IMG/VR virus record: IMGVR_UViG_3300035208_002115
Length of the DNA stretch: 64,000 nucleotides
Source: a virus
Lineage: Duplodnaviria > Caudoviricetes
Direction: 5' to 3' (one strand)
Part shown: piece after piece, positions 2,882-64,000 of the stretch
Layout: each line of letters begins with the position of its first letter
Position numbering within the stretch: the stretch's first letter is position 1
Notes under the pieces: model-generated
What the model was told of the DNA's origin: nothing
Databases searched by the model: none
What the model saw: only the letters and a program-made list of their open reading frames with translations
Position numbers and translations under genes: made by a program

Positions 2882-4924
2882 ATGGCAAAAAATACAGGAA
2901 CATTAGTTGTTGATACTATTAAGACATATGACGATACAGATAAATATGCTGTTGTCAATTCGAGTGATATCAAAGGTGGACATCATGTTGTAGATTATGA
3001 TACTGATAGAAATAATTTAGTATCAACTTACCCATTACGTACCGAGACTGGTATGTTGGTTACTGTTAGGTCATCGTCTGATAATGGTAATCGAATGACA
3101 ACGTATCAACTTAGTGGTACGACATGGGTTAATTATGCCGATTACTTGACCGATGTAGCCAATATTTGGAAATCAGGGGCAACTGGTAATATATGGTATG
3201 CCCCACCATCGGGTAATGTGGGTATTGGAATAACTGGGGCTTATATAACTGGTAAATTGACTGTTTTTGGTCAAAGCCATTTTTATGGTATAAGTGATTA
3301 TAGATTTACCATCGACCCAACAAATGCTGCTATTTATAATTATGATACATCATTACTAATAATTGGGGCAATGCGAATTGGTAATAATACATCCAATACA
3401 GGTTTGATTATGAGACCAGATTTAGGTGATAAGATTGGTATAAATATAGATATTCCCACAACGACTCTTGATATTAATGGTAAAACTACTATTAGAGAAC
3501 AACTTATTATAGATTATAGTGCGACTGGGGGTGTAGATACTTGGAATAAATCAGGTTTACTAATTAAAAATAATAATGTTACCCCAAGTGAAGTTAGTGT
3601 TGCTTTTCAAAACATATCCACAGGTTCAAACTATTGGTTCACAGGATTAAATGAAAGTTCAATTTATCAAATAATATATGGTACGTCTTATGCTGGTACT
3701 TCATTTTTTGAAATTAATACATCTGGACTGGTTACTATTAATAATTCTTTAACTGTTAATAGTTCTATAAATTTAAATACTAATACCACTTTATCGGATG
3801 GTACAATTAATGTTGGTACAACATCAAGAGCAGGTAACTCAGTTATAAGAGCAAGAACTAATGATAGTTATATATCTGGGTTTGAAGCATATGGAAATGG
3901 AGCTGGTACAGGATATTTATATGTTGGTGAAAGTTCAACTTATGGTGGCGGTGTACTTTTTAATGGTGATGATGTACCGGGAGCGATTGACCCAGTAAAT
4001 TGTGTTCTATATTATAGAAGAAGTGCTGGTGTAGATTCAACTGTTTTTTATTATACTCAAAACGCCAACCATGTATATTTTAACGGTCATATTTACTTTA
4101 ATGCTTCAAATACATCAAATATTTATCATAATATCCCAACATACGGTATAAATATGAGAGGTGGTCTTGGTCTTAATGGGAGTTCTGGGCAACAAGGGTT
4201 TGGTTCTGGTTCTATAATTTTATACACTGGGCAAGGTGGTACTGGTGGTGAGGATTTGTCTACTCCAACATATGGACTTGATGGTGGTGATAGTGGTGCT
4301 GTTTCTTTGTACACTGGACAAGGTGGTACTGCTGGTGGAACTGCGATTGGATATAGTGGTGATGGTGGTGATAGTGGAGATTTAAATATTTATACTGGTA
4401 ACGGTGGAACTTCTGTTGGACATTATGGTGGTAGTAGTGGAAATATTAACATGTATACTGGTATTGCTGGTTCTGGATATTATACAGGGTCTTATGGTGA
4501 TATAATACTTCAATATTCATCAATTGCCAGAGGAAACGTTTTAATAGCTACTAATTCAAACCCAAGTAATAGACGTTTAAAAGTAAACGGTATTGGTGAA
4601 GCTACTGACTGGATTGCAATATCAGATATAAGAGAAAAAGAAAACATTATTTCTTTTGATAATGCACTTGATAAAGTGATGAAATTAAATCCAGTATATT
4701 TTAATTTTATAAATGGTGATGATAAATCCAAAAAAATTGGATTAATTGCACAAGAAGTTGAGGTTATTATACCTGAATTAATTCCACCAACAATAGGTGA
4801 TTCTACAAAAGGTGTTAGTTATAATAACCTAAGTGCGGTCTTAGTTAAAGCTATACAGGAACAAAATCTCATTATAGATAATTTAAAAGAAGAAATAGAA
4901 AAATTAAAAACAAAAATTAATTAA
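2882..4924 (+). CDS. Tail fibre with C-terminal intramolecular chaperone (peptidase S74)
   Basis: GNVGIG / KIGIN..P...LDING fibre repeats, Gly-rich segment, then SDIREKENI...LNPVYF...IGLIAQEVE...VSY..L..VLVKAIQE and a terminal coiled coil. Confidence 0.85.
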   Translation: MAKNTGTLVVDTIKTYDDTDKYAVVNSSDIKGGHHVVDYDTDRNNLVSTYPLRTETGMLVTVRSSSDNGNRMTTYQLSGTTWVNYADYLTDVANIWKSGATGNIWYAPPSGNVGIGITGAYITGKLTVFGQSHFYGISDYRFTIDPTNAAIYNYDTSLLIIGAMRIGNNTSNTGLIMRPDLGDKIGINIDIPTTTLDINGKTTIREQLIIDYSATGGVDTWNKSGLLIKNNNVTPSEVSVAFQNISTGSNYWFTGLNESSIYQIIYGTSYAGTSFFEINTSGLVTINNSLTVNSSINLNTNTTLSDGTINVGTTSRAGNSVIRARTNDSYISGFEAYGNGAGTGYLYVGESSTYGGGVLFNGDDVPGAIDPVNCVLYYRRSAGVDSTVFYYTQNANHVYFNGHIYFNASNTSNIYHNIPTYGINMRGGLGLNGSSGQQGFGSGSIILYTGQGGTGGEDLSTPTYGLDGGDSGAVSLYTGQGGTAGGTAIGYSGDGGDSGDLNIYTGNGGTSVGHYGGSSGNINMYTGIAGSGYYTGSYGDIILQYSSIARGNVLIATNSNPSNRRLKVNGIGEATDWIAISDIREKENIISFDNALDKVMKLNPVYFNFINGDDKSKKIGLIAQEVEVIIPELIPPTIGDSTKGVSYNNLSAVLVKAIQEQNLIIDNLKEEIEKLKTKIN

Positions 4925-37770: not shown

Positions 37771-39927
37771 GTGATGATTGAGTTTAACAAACTAATTCAA
37801 GCCCAATTCAACAAGATGTGTGAAACGGGTAAGTTATTTCGTAGTTCGTTGACTGGTCAAGAAGTGTGGGATTTGTATATTAAAAGTTTTCCAAAAGAAC
37901 ACAATCCCATATTCAGAAGTCCAGACAGTTCTTCTCATAACTGTAATCACTGTAATAACTTTATTCGTAGATATGGTAATATCGTTACCATTGATGAAAA
38001 TCTCAATGTTGTTACGATGTTTGATGTTGATGCAGATGAAGAATACAGTGCAGTAGCTAAAGTGGTAGATTCTAAACTAAAATCGGCTACGGTTTCGGGT
38101 GTTTTCTTTGAAACTTTCAGCGAGCTAAATTCTTTACCTTATGAGAAATGTTCTAAAACAAATGAAATTTTCAGATTGGGTATTGACAAAAACGTAAAGC
38201 AATACACAAAAGAGGAAGCTGAATTGTATAAAAATTCAGATAATTCTTTCATAGTTAAACCTGAAGAAATTAGAACATTTAATCATTTACATCTTAATCT
38301 ACCAAGGGTATTTGTAGATATGGGTGATGATTCAGTTGAAAAAATAATGGCTAATTATCGAGATGCCAAAAATGTTTTTCAAAAGGCTATGCAAGTGATA
38401 CCGCTTGATACACTCAATCTGGTGAAAGACCTTATTAACCAAGGTTCACTGCTGGATGGACAAACTCATTTGTATAAATTACACCAAATCATACCATTAA
38501 AAGAACAATATGATAAATTATCCGATGATAAAAAGGATAATTGGTGTTGGATTAACAGTTATAAACTTCCATTTGCTAAGTTCAAAAATGAATTAATTGG
38601 TACTTTATGCACCGAGTTGGCAGAGGGGGAAGAATTAAACAAAGCATGTCAGTCTTGGAATAAAAGAGTTGACCCAGTTAATTATATGAAAACTGTTGCT
38701 CCGATTACCAAGAAACAAATTGAAGAAGCTAAAAAATTCGTTGAAGAAAATGGTTATGAAGAATCTTTTAATAGAAGATTTGCCACAATTGATGATATTA
38801 AAGCTTCGGAAATTAAACACATCAATGTTGGAGACGGTAAATTAAAAACAGTTTCTATATTCGATAATGTTAAATCGACTTCTACTCGTCACAAAAGAAG
38901 TGAATTTGATAATGTGGAAGAAGTAACTATTGAAAAGTTTATGTCGGAGGTTCTTCCTTCGTGTACTTCAGTTGAAGCGTATTTGTCTAACAAATATGAA
39001 GGTAATCTTGTTTCTTTAACAACAGCTAACAATAAAGAAAGCAAACCTATATTCAAATGGAATAACAATTACAGTTGGACATTCAATGGTAACTTGGCTG
39101 GTAAATCGATGATTAAAGATGCTGTTGAAGCTAAAGGTGGTAAGGTTGATGGTGTATTGCGTTTCTCTATTATGTGGGCAGAAAATGACCCAACAGATAA
39201 TTCCGATTTAGATGCTCATGCACAAGAACCAAATGGTACTCATATTTATTATTCGTCTGATTACAGAAAAGACAGAGGAAATCATAGAACTTCTATGTCT
39301 GGACAGTTGGATATTGATATAACTCAACCTAATAATTTTAGTAATAAAAATATTGTTGAGAATATCGCTTGGACTGATATCAAAAGAATGAAAGATGGTG
39401 TTTACAAATTGTGGATTAACCAATATGCCAGTAGGGGTTCTAAAGGATTCAAAGCTGAAATTGAATTCGGGGGCGAAATTTATTCTTATGAATATAATAA
39501 ACCCGTATCAGGCAATGTACAAGTAGCTGAAGTTACTTTTAATAATGGGGAATTTACCATTAAGCATTTACTACCTGAAATTGCATCATCTAAAGAACTT
39601 TATGGTTTACAAACAAATGAATTTCATAAAGTGAATTTAGTGTGTCTAAGTCCTAATCATTGGGGAGATAATAATGTAGGAAATAAACATTATTTATTCA
39701 TGCTTGATGATTGTAAATGTCCAGTAAATATTCGTAGTTTTCATAATGAAAACTTGATACCAGAATTAGCACAACATCGCAAAGTTCTCGAAGTACTGGG
39801 TAACACTACTATGATTGAACCTGCTAATAAACAATTATCTGGTTTTGGGTTCAATGCTACTGTTCGAGATGAACTTATTGTTAAATTACAAGGGTCATTC
39901 AAACGAGTAATTAAAATAAAATTTTAA
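37771..39927 (+). CDS. Large conserved phage protein with YfaP/TerD-like C-terminal domain
   Basis: HNCNHC..FI..YG; SDLDAH..EP...HIYY...LDID...VENI.W. Confidence 0.55.
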   Translation: MMIEFNKLIQAQFNKMCETGKLFRSSLTGQEVWDLYIKSFPKEHNPIFRSPDSSSHNCNHCNNFIRRYGNIVTIDENLNVVTMFDVDADEEYSAVAKVVDSKLKSATVSGVFFETFSELNSLPYEKCSKTNEIFRLGIDKNVKQYTKEEAELYKNSDNSFIVKPEEIRTFNHLHLNLPRVFVDMGDDSVEKIMANYRDAKNVFQKAMQVIPLDTLNLVKDLINQGSLLDGQTHLYKLHQIIPLKEQYDKLSDDKKDNWCWINSYKLPFAKFKNELIGTLCTELAEGEELNKACQSWNKRVDPVNYMKTVAPITKKQIEEAKKFVEENGYEESFNRRFATIDDIKASEIKHINVGDGKLKTVSIFDNVKSTSTRHKRSEFDNVEEVTIEKFMSEVLPSCTSVEAYLSNKYEGNLVSLTTANNKESKPIFKWNNNYSWTFNGNLAGKSMIKDAVEAKGGKVDGVLRFSIMWAENDPTDNSDLDAHAQEPNGTHIYYSSDYRKDRGNHRTSMSGQLDIDITQPNNFSNKNIVENIAWTDIKRMKDGVYKLWINQYASRGSKGFKAEIEFGGEIYSYEYNKPVSGNVQVAEVTFNNGEFTIKHLLPEIASSKELYGLQTNEFHKVNLVCLSPNHWGDNNVGNKHYLFMLDDCKCPVNIRSFHNENLIPELAQHRKVLEVLGNTTMIEPANKQLSGFGFNATVRDELIVKLQGSFKRVIKIKF

Positions 39928-40349: not shown

Positions 40350-40378
40350 AAAAAAGTGGGGTTATTCCCCACTTTTTT
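40350..40378. terminator. Bidirectional terminator
   Basis: AAAAAAGTGGGG-TTATT-CCCCACTTTTTT at a convergence point. Confidence 0.75.
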
Positions 40379-40674: not shown

Positions 40675-41007
40675 TTATATCTTATATGCTATTTTTTTCA
40701 AATAGTTTTGTGAAGTTTCAGAATTTATTTTATCTTTTATGTGTGGTAATAAATTATTATCAACCCAGAATCCACATACATTACCTTTTCGTTGACCGTT
40801 CATCCGACAACGAAGTTCCATAGATTTATATCTTTTCTCTATTTGGTCTGGGTTATTTTTATCAATTTCTGTTATACCTTCTACGCCTTCATCATCCAAT
40901 ATGCCCATATGGAGCGTATGAGTTCTTTCGAATTCTATACGTTCGTCTGATTTGTTTATTTCGTGAAGCTTCACGAATCTTTCGAGTTTCTTATCCATAA
41001 CGTTCAC
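40675..41007 (-). CDS. Hypothetical protein
   Basis: 110-aa ORF; start may be the second Met. Confidence 0.5.
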   Translation of the reverse strand: MNVMDKKLERFVKLHEINKSDERIEFERTHTLHMGILDDEGVEGITEIDKNNPDQIEKRYKSMELRCRMNGQRKGNVCGFWVDNNLLPHIKDKINSETSQNYLKKIAYKI

Positions 41008-41332
41008 CTTCTGGTTTAGCCCACCAATCTTTATAATATTGAACTTGTTCTTCTAAATTAATAGGTTTATCATTAAATTTACGGTGAAAAGATTTTAATA
41101 TAATACCAGACATATCGTCTGCATGTGCTATACCTAATGAATTAAACCATTTGGCTACTTCACTTTTATACCACAATTTTAAATCGTTACGCAATCTCTG
41201 ACCAAGGGTGCGATGTAATCCAATCACATCATCTTCAGATAAAGTTTTAACCCATTCAAAATCTTCATCTGATAAATATGTTTTTATTTGTGCAAAACAC
41301 AAACTCAACATTTTTTCGTTATTATATTTCAT
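40991..41332 (-). CDS. DUF6794-like protein
   Basis: LH..LG..LRN..KLW...F..LGI.HADDMS..IL..FHR. Confidence 0.55.
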   Translation of the reverse strand: MKYNNEKMLSLCFAQIKTYLSDEDFEWVKTLSEDDVIGLHRTLGQRLRNDLKLWYKSEVAKWFNSLGIAHADDMSGIILKSFHRKFNDKPINLEEQVQYYKDWWAKPEGERYG

Positions 41333-41350: not shown

Positions 41351-41648
41351 TCTACAATAATCCTCATTTTTATATGTTCACTCACCTAAGACTGTCAACG
41401 GCAGCATGAATATTCGATATGCCTACCTTCAATTTAGCGTGTTCACTCACCCTTTGCTATCAAAATGCAATGTATACCCATGATGTGTCTACCTTCAATT
41501 TAGCGTGTTCACTCACCAGTCTAAAGTTTTATACGAATAAAGGTCTCGATGTGTCTACCTTCAATTTAGCGTGTTCACTCACCAAAAGGATAAGTCGATC
41601 AGCATCCCTACCGATGTGTCTACCTTCAATTTAGCGTGTTCACTCACC
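41351..41648 (-). CRISPR. CRISPR-like mini-array: four 36-bp repeats plus one degenerate terminal repeat, four spacers of 29-30 bp; no cas genes in the window
   Basis: GATGTGTCTACCTTCAATTTAGCGTGTTCACTCACC at 41482, 41548 and 41613 (identical) and at 41416 (2 mismatches); degenerate copy at 41351-41386. Unique spacers 41387-41415, 41452-41481, 41518-41547, 41584-41612. Confidence 0.85.
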
Positions 41649-41914
41649 ATACTACTAACTAATTTATTAATATTCAAATCATTAAGATGATATTTTTCTT
41701 CTAAAATTTGATGTATTTTAGAGAAAGAATAATATAAAATGTATTTTTTTAAATCATAATTAAAATAAACAATATTATTTTTCTTACCAATTAAATAATC
41801 AGAATCATTTTCAGAAACATACCATTCTGTATCCTTAATGATATTCCAAAGGAAGTATTTTGGACTTCTGGCTTCCTGAATCTTTTGTATTATATCTAAA
41901 GTATCTTCTTCCAT
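41579..41914 (-). CDS. 111-aa protein whose C-terminus is encoded by the first repeat and spacer of the array
   Basis: Codons 89-101 (M-VSEHAKLKVDT-S) span the repeat at 41648-41613; the spacer gives VGMLIDLSF-W; the stop TGA lies in the next repeat. Confidence 0.75.
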   Translation of the reverse strand: MEEDTLDIIQKIQEARSPKYFLWNIIKDTEWYVSENDSDYLIGKKNNIVYFNYDLKKYILYYSFSKIHQILEEKYHLNDLNINKLVSSMVSEHAKLKVDTSVGMLIDLSFW

Positions 41915-41917
41915 TCT

Positions 41918-42493
41918 TTATGAGAGATATGCCATACATTTGTTTTTAGCCTCGGTTAGCTCAATGAATTTATCTCTGTTACCACCTTTGTCTGGGTGGT
42001 GAACCATTGATAATTTGCGGTATGCCCCTTTAACATCTTCTAATGTAGCATCAGTTTCTAACCCAAGAACTTGAAAACTGGATGATGGTTTTTGTTTTGA
42101 AAACAATGAATGTAAAAAGAATCCAAATATCCAAGAATCTTCTTCTTTTTCCATGCGTTCCCAATCTTCTTTTCTTTTTTTCCAATCTTCTTTTTCCTGT
42201 CGTTGTCGCTCCATTACTTCAGGAAACAATTCTTCCCGTAATTTAGCTATCACAGAAGCGAAAAAATATTTCCAGAGTTTTTCAGGTAATTGACCAGCCG
42301 TTTTTTTATCTATGCCATCCCATTTCATTCGAATAGCATTGACAGCGTTATTATAACCTTTAATATTACCTCGTGCATTACCCACTTCTAAAAGTGTAAT
42401 AAAATCCATTGTCAAGTCTGAAATGAATTCATTATGACTGAAGTTTACACCTTTATCAAGGTTATATTTTTTAATGTAATCGAGTGGTTTCAT
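41918..42493 (-). CDS. Protein with C-terminal DnaJ (J) domain
   Basis: FQVLGL...VKGAYRKLSMVHHPDKGG...F..L.EA. Confidence 0.85.
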   Translation of the reverse strand: MKPLDYIKKYNLDKGVNFSHNEFISDLTMDFITLLEVGNARGNIKGYNNAVNAIRMKWDGIDKKTAGQLPEKLWKYFFASVIAKLREELFPEVMERQRQEKEDWKKRKEDWERMEKEEDSWIFGFFLHSLFSKQKPSSSFQVLGLETDATLEDVKGAYRKLSMVHHPDKGGNRDKFIELTEAKNKCMAYLS

Positions 42494-61924: not shown

Positions 61925-64000
61925 ATGAATAAAGCTGTTTTGGGCATTGGGTATGGGGATGAAGGTAAGGGTATAACAACCGATTACCTCTGTCCCCTTT
62001 CTTTTAATCCAATGGTAGTGAGATTTTCAGGTGGTCAGCAAGCTGGTCATTGTCAAGTAGGTGATACACTTATTACCACAATTAATGGTTTATTTTATAT
62101 TAAAGATTTAGTAGGTGAAAAAACAAATGTTAATTCGTCTTTTGATGTCATTAATATGAATTTAGAATCTGAAAAAACATCCTTATTGTATAAAGAAAAA
62201 AATAAAAAGGTTAATAAAATACTTCTTTCCAATGGTGTCGAATTTGGGTGTACTTCTTCACATAAATATTTCGTATGGAATTCTATTAATATGTCATGTG
62301 AGTGGGTTGAAAGTGTGTATTTGAATAAAAATATACATCAATTTATTTTCCCAAAAAAATATGATAATTATATAGGTAATGATTTATTTGATTTATCTAA
62401 TATTGATAATACAACAGATTTTATTCATAATAAAGTTAAAATTAACATTAAAAAAATAGATATATATGATATATCGGAGTTAATGGGTCTTGTTAATGGT
62501 GATGGTATGTTTACTAAAAAGGGTTTACAAATTATTTTTAATAAAAAACAAAAAGATGTATTAGAAACAGTTGTTAATTCCTTAAAAAACATGGGGATAA
62601 ATTATACAATTAAACCACATAAATGCAAATCTTGTTTAATATTATATATATGGTCTACTGATTTTTTGAATATTCTTTTAAAATTGGGTTGCTTTTTTAA
62701 AAAAGGTGTAGAAAAAAGAACACCCACTTTTGTGTTAAATGGTACAAAAAAAATAATTAAATCATATTTAAGAGGTCTTTTTGATACCGATGGGTGTGTT
62801 AGTTTTCACAAAAAAAAACAAAATATATATGGAAGAATAAAATTTAGTAACACATCTGAAATTTTAATTCGAGAAATGCAACAAATGTTATATTTAATTG
62901 GAATACATTCCCATGTATCAATATATAAAAATAAAAAAAAGAAACGATTAACTGTATTTAATATAGAAATATCTTCTATTGAAGATATTATAAAATTTTC
63001 AGAAAGAATAGGATTTATTTCTAAATATAATAATAATAAATTAGATAAATTAATAGAATTAAAACAAAATAAAAACCCAAACCTTAATGGTGTTGTATTA
63101 AAAGTAAATTCAAATTTCAAAAAAAACTTCCTTAAAATATTAAATAAAAAGGGAAGAAATAATAACAATATTAGAACAAATTTCATTCTAAATAATAAAT
63201 CAAAAATACAAGAAGAATATAATTATCTGATAGAACTTTTAGAAACATATAATTTAATAAATATTAAAGAAATAGTATTAAATGACAGAATTGAAAATGT
63301 CTACGATATAACAATGCCAAACACACATAGTTATATTTCAAATGGTACTATATCCCACAACACCGTTATTTTAAATGATATCAGACACGTATTTTCAAAT
63401 TTTGGTTCTGGTACATTACGTGAAATCCCAAGTTATTGGGCGAAATACTGCACCGTTGACCCAGTTGGTCTAATAAATGAATTAGATATTTTAATTGAAA
63501 AAGGTGTTCAGCCTTTATTATACATTGATGAAAGGTGTCCTATAACAACACCATTTGATATATTTTATAATCATGAATCCGAAAAAACCAATAATCATGG
63601 TAGCGTTGGGGTTGGTGTTGGTGCTACAATAAATAGAGAAGAAAAATTTTATTCTTTACAATTTGGTGATTTATTTTATGAACCAGTGATGAGAATAAAA
63701 TTAAATGAAATAAAAAAATTCTATAATTTAAATTTTGAAATTAATTTAGATAGATTTTTTCAAAGTATAGAAAGAATCATATCTTCTAAAAATATAAAAC
63801 CTGTGTATGATTTTCCATTTAGTGAAAATTATATTTTTGAAGGTTCTCAGGGATTATTATTAGACCCAAATATTGGGTTTTTCCCTCATGTCACAAGAAG
63901 TTATGTTAGTACTAAAAATATAATAGATGCTGGATTTAAACCTGAATTATATTTAGTTACAAGAGCTTATCAAACCAGACATGGTAATGGGGCTATGATT
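61925..64000 (+). CDS. purA: Adenylosuccinate synthetase-like protein with intein, 3'-truncated by the window (absent from the ORF track)
   Basis: MNKAVLGIGYGDEGKG...RFSGGQQAGH|intein|TV...HGSVGVGVG...FEGSQGLLLD...FPHVTRS...VTRAYQTRHGNG. Confidence 0.85.
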   Translation, partial: MNKAVLGIGYGDEGKGITTDYLCPLSFNPMVVRFSGGQQAGHCQVGDTLITTINGLFYIKDLVGEKTNVNSSFDVINMNLESEKTSLLYKEKNKKVNKILLSNGVEFGCTSSHKYFVWNSINMSCEWVESVYLNKNIHQFIFPKKYDNYIGNDLFDLSNIDNTTDFIHNKVKINIKKIDIYDISELMGLVNGDGMFTKKGLQIIFNKKQKDVLETVVNSLKNMGINYTIKPHKCKSCLILYIWSTDFLNILLKLGCFFKKGVEKRTPTFVLNGTKKIIKSYLRGLFDTDGCVSFHKKKQNIYGRIKFSNTSEILIREMQQMLYLIGIHSHVSIYKNKKKKRLTVFNIEISSIEDIIKFSERIGFISKYNNNKLDKLIELKQNKNPNLNGVVLKVNSNFKKNFLKILNKKGRNNNNIRTNFILNNKSKIQEEYNYLIELLETYNLINIKEIVLNDRIENVYDITMPNTHSYISNGTISHNTVILNDIRHVFSNFGSGTLREIPSYWAKYCTVDPVGLINELDILIEKGVQPLLYIDERCPITTPFDIFYNHESEKTNNHGSVGVGVGATINREEKFYSLQFGDLFYEPVMRIKLNEIKKFYNLNFEINLDRFFQSIERIISSKNIKPVYDFPFSENYIFEGSQGLLLDPNIGFFPHVTRSYVSTKNIIDAGFKPELYLVTRAYQTRHGNGAMI
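62051..63361 (+). mobile_element. 437-aa intein with LAGLIDADG homing endonuclease
   Basis: Starts CQVGDTLI; block B CTSSH; LMGLVNGDG and YLRGLFDTDG motifs; ends VYDITMPNTHSYISNGTISHN, followed by Thr. Confidence 0.9.

Follow-up and report, generated by a model that had tools for sequence, protein, structure and literature searches.

The mini-CRISPR arrays of Sulfolobales viruses, which Medvedeva et al. are said to have described in 2019, reportedly have repeats that match those of host arrays and sit behind an ordinary leader. Huge phages carry compact arrays with a median of six repeats and without Cas1, Cas2, or Cas4, some of them without a recognisable effector, according to the survey by Al-Shayeb et al. 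2020 (PMC7162821). Loading in trans is documented in Flavobacterium columnare, where the type II-C Cas1/Cas2/Cas9 system loads a type VI-B array; the II-C and VI-B repeats are 36 bp long and share just a leader-distal GTTGT motif, and self-targeting spacers are tolerated in the array that cuts no DNA (Hoikkala et al. 2021, PMC8092290). New arrays can also be spawned by off-target integration, as with the neo-CRISPR arrays of E. coli reported by Nivala, Shipman and Church 2018 (as cited in 10.1101/148544).

The array described here lies in a 64,000-nt stretch of DNA (the window) that corresponds to bases 445,370-509,369 of the 675,678-bp IMG/VR virus record IMGVR_UViG_3300035208_002115 (Caudoviricetes; 27% GC, standard genetic code). 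An alternative genetic code for the phage was tried and rejected. The leader and first repeat of the array coincide with the 3′ end of a conserved gene for a small protein, and the array, whose spacers turn over actively, is of a CRISPR kind confined, in the collections searched, to this megaphage clade. No cas gene accompanies it locally, but the phage itself is not cas-less. The statement of an initial annotation, made from the sequence without database searches, that the 64 kb contain no cas gene holds as far as tested: whole-genome six-frame searches place no RRXRR domain, Cas12f TNB domain, Cas1, or Cas2 in the window, and its large ORFs have no PADLOC or NCBIfam cas match. The adjacent cas genes that define a CRISPR-Cas locus are absent from the gene-fused array.

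The phage host is probably a member of the Bacteroidota, as hinted by a C-terminal T9SS type B sorting domain in a 974-aa phage ORF (genome 20528-23452). At the far end of the window, an adenylosuccinate synthetase gene (window 61925-64000, on to genome 509702) is split by an intein with a LAGLIDADG endonuclease domain.

Architecture and composition of the array

Repeat and spacer mapping confirms the 36-bp repeats and 29-30-bp spacers that the initial annotation had placed at 41351-41648. The array is genuine and consists of five repeats, four of them full-length (36 nt) and one decayed, and of four unique spacers of 29-30 nt, with start-to-start repeat spacings of 65, 66, 66, and 65 nt:

41351..41386, plus strand: decayed repeat, the oldest, at the trailer end; its right-hand 23 nt alone are recognisable (18/23 identical)
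41387..41415, plus strand: spacer 1, 29 nt, GC 0.41
41416..41451, plus strand: repeat 2, two mismatches relative to the newer copies
41452..41481, plus strand: spacer 2, 30 nt, GC 0.33
41482..41517, plus strand: repeat 3, identical to repeats 4 and 5
41518..41547, plus strand: spacer 3, 30 nt, GC 0.30
41548..41583, plus strand: repeat 4, identical to repeats 3 and 5
41584..41612, plus strand: spacer 4, the newest and gene-proximal, 29 nt, GC 0.45
41613..41648, plus strand: repeat 5, the newest, which on the minus strand codes for small-gene residues 90-101, with the motif VSEHxKxxVDTx

The locus has the general hallmarks of a CRISPR array, i.e., direct repeats of fixed length and unique spacers of near-fixed length, each of the latter occurring once in the phage genome. 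It also has polarity, with a conserved gene-proximal repeat and a decayed terminal one. Five copies of the 11-mer that closes the repeat on the right exist in the 676 kb, every one of them in the array, against an expectation of 0.03. Spacer GC (0.30-0.45) lies above that of the genome (0.27), in agreement with the earlier impression that the spacers look foreign.

The small gene and its surroundings

The genes and signals around the array are as follows:

41918..42493, minus strand: DnaJ-domain gene, directly upstream of the small gene; the neighbourhood recurs in three orthologous loci
41579..41914, minus strand: small conserved gene, with 89 aa followed by 12 repeat-coded aa and a tail from spacer 4
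40991..41332, minus strand: DUF6794 gene, starting 18 nt past the array
40350..40378, no strand assigned: terminator-like strong hairpin with A and T tracts, the first such site downstream of the minus-strand operon

The small ORF runs from 41914 to 41579 on the minus strand and passes in frame through the newest repeat. The same arrangement holds for 17 of the 18 modules in three genomes (this phage and two sister megaphages described below), where an ORF of at least 89 aa enters the repeat in the same frame; the upstream frame of the 18th is broken. The 12-residue segment encoded by the repeat is conserved, while the residues downstream are dictated by the first spacer; the protein alignment is invariant up to M89 and H93 and divergent after. 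Copies of the gene are under purifying selection relative to one another (dN/dS 0.21-0.43), and an AF2/AlphaFold model from a 16-sequence alignment has a mean pLDDT of 86, with a last helix that reaches the repeat-coded residues.

The protein belongs to no Pfam, PHROG, or PADLOC family and has no Foldseek match at E ≤ 0.001, the best VIA-align Z of 4.2 being uninformative. Its family comprises 17 clusters among 5.8 billion proteins, all metagenomic. The copy beside the array differs from its G001 counterpart (180598-180899) with a dN of 0.24 and a dS of 0.78, while the adjacent 718-aa protein is 96% identical, which suggests fast evolution of the small gene or its replacement by another paralog.

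An array-less paralog of 126 aa (genome 237106-236729) aligns over the repeat-coded segment and extends for ~30 further residues; a tail of this kind was found in neither sister genome. Because the alignment crosses the repeat-coded segment, the repeat looks more like exapted coding sequence than like a repeat captured from a host. The in-frame conserved coding segment and the array-less paralog both place the origin of the repeat in non-CRISPR sequence, as in a neo-CRISPR array.

The small gene acts as the leader of the array and probably as its promoter side as well. The DUF6794 gene begins on the same strand shortly after the array, which places the array inside a minus-strand operon. Since no terminator-like site precedes the hairpin at 40350-40378, the array is likely to be co-transcribed with the small gene. 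A sigma-70 scan returned fewer sites than shuffled sequences, no Bacteroidota-type -7 box flanks the array, and an Rfam search of the array region gave nothing relevant.

Modules in sister megaphages

Relatives were found through the neighbouring 718-aa gene, and two sister genomes were analysed whole: G001 (421 kb, 59% complete) and G002 (640 kb, complete). G001 has six arrays and one solitary repeat, which amount to seven gene-plus-repeat modules. G002 has eight arrays and two solitary repeats, plus one more diverged array, for at least 10 modules, the most of the three genomes. Additional module copies occur on metagenome contigs. The small gene alone is common to all modules; there is no nuclease or other recurrent neighbour. 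Three gene copies end in a single repeat with no spacer.

The sister arrays make the polarity explicit. Their newest five to eight repeats are identical to the gene-proximal repeat, and the oldest are of another variant or decayed; in one G001 array, eight identical new repeats are succeeded by a copy with a deletion and finally by a copy of another subtype. This gradient indicates that new units join on the gene side, where the last 36 nt of the gene are copied, in a manner resembling CRISPR adaptation. A leader at the decayed end was also considered and was rejected, as it is contradicted by the gradient of repeat variants. Four syntenic orthologous arrays, each in the order DnaJ gene, small gene, array, and DUF6794 gene, have zero spacers in common. 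Spacers have thus turned over despite the 96% identity of the neighbouring gene in the closest relative.

Several other features of the sister genomes were noted. A broken copy of the small gene lies at G001 190600-190950, directly upstream of the Cas12f-like gene, and consists of 43 codons, a stop, and a remnant of the repeat-coded motif in another frame. At G002 4381-4476, the same 30-nt spacer occurs twice in tandem, a unit duplication with no new acquisition. G002 has two further arrays (genome 177773-177993 and 288242-288937); the repeat of one looks Cas12a-like, while the other has an unrelated repeat type and spans ~700 bp.

Origin of the spacers and the flanking motif

Across the family, 7 of 55 spacers (~1 in 8) match the three megaphage genomes, and four of these seven are perfect matches to the spacer-bearing genome itself. 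The other 48 have no match in available sequences. Megaphage matches are enriched among the newest, gene-proximal spacers (5/14 vs 2/32 among older ones; Fisher p = 0.02), and three of the eight newest spacers of G002 come from its own genome or a sibling. One protospacer lies in the window itself:

39150..39180, minus strand: protospacer in the 718-aa gene, a 31/31 match to a spacer of the orthologous G001 array, preceded by TTTTC

The same spacer also matches G001 itself.

With the repeat oriented to start GTTGTG, TTT occupies positions -4 to -2 in five of seven protospacers and lies within 6 nt in all eight of eight (p about 1e-5). The spacer end that bears this motif points away from the gene and leader, whereas the Flavobacterium II-C and VI-B arrays have the opposite orientation, with the motif end toward the leader (PMC8092290). 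The mean GC of family spacers (0.35 vs 0.26-0.27 for the phages) suggests that many spacers derive from DNA other than these phages.

The initial annotation had proposed a protospacer search for the four spacers of the window array, and none was found in any collection searched. The four spacers gave only chance matches in INPHARED (blastn), and none in their own genome beyond the array, the two sister genomes, or five additional records of related phages. In IMG/VR, the 23-nt cores of spacers 1 and 4 have no exact match, nor does the core of spacer 4 in metagenome contigs. Across 401 Bacteroidota genomes, the sole match was a chance 21/22 match to the repeat, outside any array, and nine sister-array spacers gave chance-level matches only in the same genomes.

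One spacer of a family array (L104:3383-3412, also L105 and L038) has 15 nt identical to the repeat of another array of this phage, array A, which is linked to an IscB gene (see below). An array of that IscB-linked type may be its source or its target.

A possible neo-CRISPR record or sink

The reading preferred here, tentatively and at a probability somewhat short of even, is that the array is a neo-CRISPR record or sink rather than a weapon, loaded in trans by a host CRISPR integrase at a gene-borne site that resembles a leader and repeat. During infection, the CRISPR integrase of the host, which is probably a member of the Bacteroidota, would take the end of the gene for a leader-repeat junction and would insert 29-32-nt pieces of any TTTN-flanked DNA in the cell. 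Each insertion would duplicate the last 36 nt of the gene, and the array would be transcribed as the 3′ tail of the small-gene mRNA. Its product would be a naturally formed neo-CRISPR record, which may act as a sink by drawing the spacer integration of the host towards phage DNA, and any use of the array for guides would be secondary.

Searches of five related phage records, two of which are incomplete, uncovered no Cas1, and no Cas2 was found in this phage, yet spacers turn over, which makes loading by host Cas1-Cas2 the most plausible route, as the initial annotation had supposed. The spacer-inserting enzymes of the host therefore probably write into phage DNA. The loading in trans seen in F. 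columnare and the neo-CRISPR arrays of E. coli serve as precedents. The phages tolerate perfect self-targets flanked by the motif, and the modules come with neither an effector nor a matching anti-repeat, which argues for a record or sink over a weapon. The self-matches would also be harmless if the phage DNA were shielded or if the relevant PAM were on the other side. The benefit of the array as a sink is purely conjectural.

Several observations speak against a record or sink: the motif end faces away from the leader, opposite to the orientation in F. columnare (PMC8092290); the repeat shares its leader-distal 22 nt with a Cas12f-linked array and has moderate complementarity to the corresponding tracr region; 48 of the 55 family spacers lack a match; and the arrays are longer and cleaner where the phage has the Cas12f-like nuclease.

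A related reading, considered unlikely, assigns the array to a gene family with a built-in mimic of the leader and repeat that captures host integration, at 8-12 copies per genome, and that serves both as an anti-adaptation decoy and as a birthplace of arrays. Such mimic copies on every replicating genome would starve the host array of new anti-phage spacers, and the modules would give birth to arrays from coding sequence, thereby seeding the arrays of the phage IscB and Cas12f-like nucleases.

Phage-encoded RNA-guided nucleases

The main competitor of the record or sink is a satellite guide store, which is a doubtful but serious possibility. The array would be loaded in trans and would serve a tracr-dependent mini-nuclease of the phage, most likely the Cas12f/V-U3-like protein and less likely IscB, against sibling phages, other mobile elements, or host DNA. 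The fact that some spacers fit sibling phages better than self is in line with such targets. The reading gains from a search for cas genes elsewhere in the genome, which the initial annotation had recommended and which showed that the phage owns RNA-guided nucleases of both types outside the window, each with its own array and without adaptation genes. A whole-genome k-mer scan detected two further arrays on the same strand, with 36-nt repeats and ~30-nt spacers:

Genome 130,402-130,873: array A, after a 529-aa RRXRR+HNH (IscB-type) gene and followed by an anti-repeat and a full-length HEARO/omegaRNA match (67 bits)
Genome 513,180-513,478: array C, 3.8 kb past the end of the window, adjoining a 446-aa nuclease-like protein

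The locus of IscB, array A, and omegaRNA lies 355 kb from the gene-fused array and is the single HEARO locus in the phage genome. The Cas12f/V-U3-like nuclease and array C are 26 kb away; the 446-aa protein matches PADLOC Cas12u3 (6e-64) and Cas12f (2e-60). The repeats of arrays A and C share their first 22 nt, the leader-distal 22 nt, with the gene-fused repeat, and this segment, common to all three repeats, also favours a guide store. No repeat-like sequence flanks a second TnpB-like gene (genome 25-26 kb), and Cas13, Cas9, and Cas12a have no match among ten phage ORFs of at least 974 aa, with ORFs of 600-900 aa partly covered.

The sister genomes vary at the IscB loci. At G002 395330-396029, a CRISPR-linked IscB is cut to its first 104 residues, which abut a two-repeat array and a HEARO-like RNA that is intact. 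Both sister phages have, besides, a canonical IscB that lacks an array and is preceded by a HEARO RNA (89-103 bits).

The initial annotation had noted that the repeat ends pair imperfectly, and indeed they can form four pairs, one of them G-U, in a fold no better than that of shuffled sequences. The repeat is unstructured in both orientations (MFE -3.6 and -5.5 kcal/mol in the Cas13b-type orientation, z +0.1 and -0.9), so a tracr-like partner would be needed, which again suits a tracr-dependent mini-nuclease.

The anti-repeat of the IscB locus is not this partner. Its pairing with the repeat of array A is almost unbroken (-18.3 kcal/mol), that with the repeat of array C keeps the same register (-15.0), and the gene-fused repeat does not pair with it, a misfit that weighs against the IscB form of the guide store. 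Service of the gene-fused array by the IscB omegaRNA was accordingly rejected, since the anti-repeat pairs with the repeats of arrays A and C alone. The anti-repeat search suggested by the initial annotation thus turned up one that fits other arrays, and none that matches this one; moreover, no reverse-complement copy of the conserved end of the repeat exists anywhere in the genome.

Between the Cas12f-like nuclease gene and array C lies a 217-nt region (gene and region together: genome 513479-515036), part of which is complementary to the array C repeat; when this phage is compared with its closest relative, that part and the repeat have changed together. The gene-fused repeat pairs moderately with this anti-repeat region (-12.7 kcal/mol, z -1.3, here; -17.3, z -2.7, in G001), compared with -15.9 (here) and -19.9 (G001) for the cognate repeats, and has an 8-bp match to a conserved tracr segment of the Cas12f-like nuclease, both of which count in favour of a guide store. 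So does the size of the arrays: the two phages with the Cas12f-like nuclease have longer and cleaner ones, of up to 10 repeats, than G002 does, a difference that fits effector-dependent use.

The remaining evidence is less accommodating to a guide store. Four perfect self-matches with TTTN are tolerated, and the motif sits at the wrong spacer end for a Cas12 guide read from the gene side; TTTN falls on the repeat-proximal side of the spacer, as expected of a Cas12f-type 5′ PAM, only if the array is read toward the gene. G002 has no Cas12f-like ortholog and keeps acquiring spacers, and not one module has a nuclease neighbour.

Host effectors and other readings

The initial annotation had favoured a host system of type VI-B or II. 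Loaded with transcripts of the array, host Cas13b or Cas9 would either be turned against competitors or host RNA or be titrated, in the manner of an RNA anti-CRISPR. This hijack or decoy is quite improbable. It draws on the 36/30 geometry and the leader-distal GTTGT-type motif, as in the II-C and VI-B arrays of Bacteroidota (PMC8092290), on the solitary gene-fused repeats of the sister phages, which recall viral solitary repeat units (PMC10651486), and on a host that is probably a member of the Bacteroidota, given the T9SS sorting domain. The initial annotation had let the idea depend on protospacer matches and on similarity of the repeat to a host CRISPR family, and no protospacer, bacterial repeat, or hairpin was found; on these terms the host hijack of type VI-B or II fails. 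The likeness to Cas13b repeats that the initial annotation had suggested would lie in the common leader-distal GTTGT motif (PMC8092290).

Specifically, the exact repeat is absent from IMG/VR. A tandem 11-mer scan of 185,579 species genomes returned five chance matches, one of them a leucine-rich-repeat gene, and no genome with the repeat. A profile of 16 repeat variants gave single partial matches only, none in an array, in 151 Bacteroidota genomes. The scan of 241 million metagenome records yielded 89 loci, 10 of which have this repeat type, all of them phage-clade-like. No bacterial genome in the collections searched, and no metagenome contig beyond the phage clade, carries the repeat.

Repeats of Cas13b and Cas12a fold into hairpins, with paired ends in those of Cas13b. 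The gene-fused repeat has no hairpin and no match to the Rfam CRISPR-DR families, and the protospacers have no clear strand bias relative to genes (five antisense, two sense), all of which is at odds with a host effector of this kind.

It is very improbable that the insertions serve to rewrite the C-terminal tail of the small protein rather than to provide RNA guides: every insertion does alter 4-30 residues after the repeat-coded segment, but the tails, terminated by chance stops, vary at random in both length and content, units of 65-67 nt do not preserve the frame, and three gene copies are functional with just one repeat and without any spacer.

Comparison with known systems

The array shares features with each of the systems to which it can be compared. 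Like the mini-CRISPR arrays of Sulfolobales viruses, it is short, cas-less, and viral, with a presumed dependence on host machinery, and its family has spacers against close relatives. Unlike them, it has a repeat that is specific to the phage clade and forms the coding end of a gene, it is part of a multi-copy module, and its family has perfect self-matches.

The array also resembles those of huge phages in PMC7162821 in being compact, carried by a huge phage, and devoid of adaptation genes. Compact, cas-less arrays in huge phages were already known from that survey. The gene-fused leader and repeat, the multi-copy modules, and the self-derived spacers are features of the present family that its consulted passages do not describe. 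In the literature searched, no description was found of a repeat formed by the coding end of a gene, of a multi-copy module of gene and array, or of frequent self-derived spacers.

Viral solitary repeat units, or Racrs (Camara-Wilpert et al. 2023, PMC10651486), are likewise cas-less phage repeats, and three sister modules are single-repeat. Racrs mimic a host repeat, whereas the repeat described here has no bacterial counterpart in the collections searched and most modules have spacers. Of the CRISPR-associated IscB (DelIscB, PMC12660989) and Cas12f/V-U3 loci (PADLOC Cas12u3/Cas12f), the same phage has one each, and the repeats of these two have their leader-distal half in common with the gene-fused array. 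Unlike these loci, the gene-fused array has no adjoining nuclease, anti-repeat, or scaffold RNA.

The VI-B array of F. columnare is similar in having no adaptation genes of its own, a 36-bp repeat, a leader-distal GTTGT, and tolerated self-targeting spacers. The F. columnare case involves one bacterial genome, a Cas13b effector, and the motif NNNNNTAAA facing the leader, whereas the recipient here is a phage gene and the motif is a directly adjacent TTTN that faces away from the leader. With its fixed insertion point inside a gene, polarity, acquisition motif, and self-derived spacers, the family constitutes a natural record of what is probably in-trans loading.

Finally, the array is like the neo-CRISPR arrays of E. 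coli in that a site outside any CRISPR gives rise to repeat-spacer units as its target sequence is duplicated. Those arrays are reported to have formed under over-expression of Cas1-Cas2, while the process here would be natural, recurrent, seated in a phage gene family, and inherited across lineages. If the integrase is that of the host, the modules would form the first series of neo-CRISPR arrays to have originated naturally from coding sequence. The family may also represent a new form of counter-defence, namely a sink for host adaptation, and it makes the de novo origin of CRISPR arrays, as well as the manner in which miniature nucleases such as IscB and Cas12f acquire arrays, amenable to testing.
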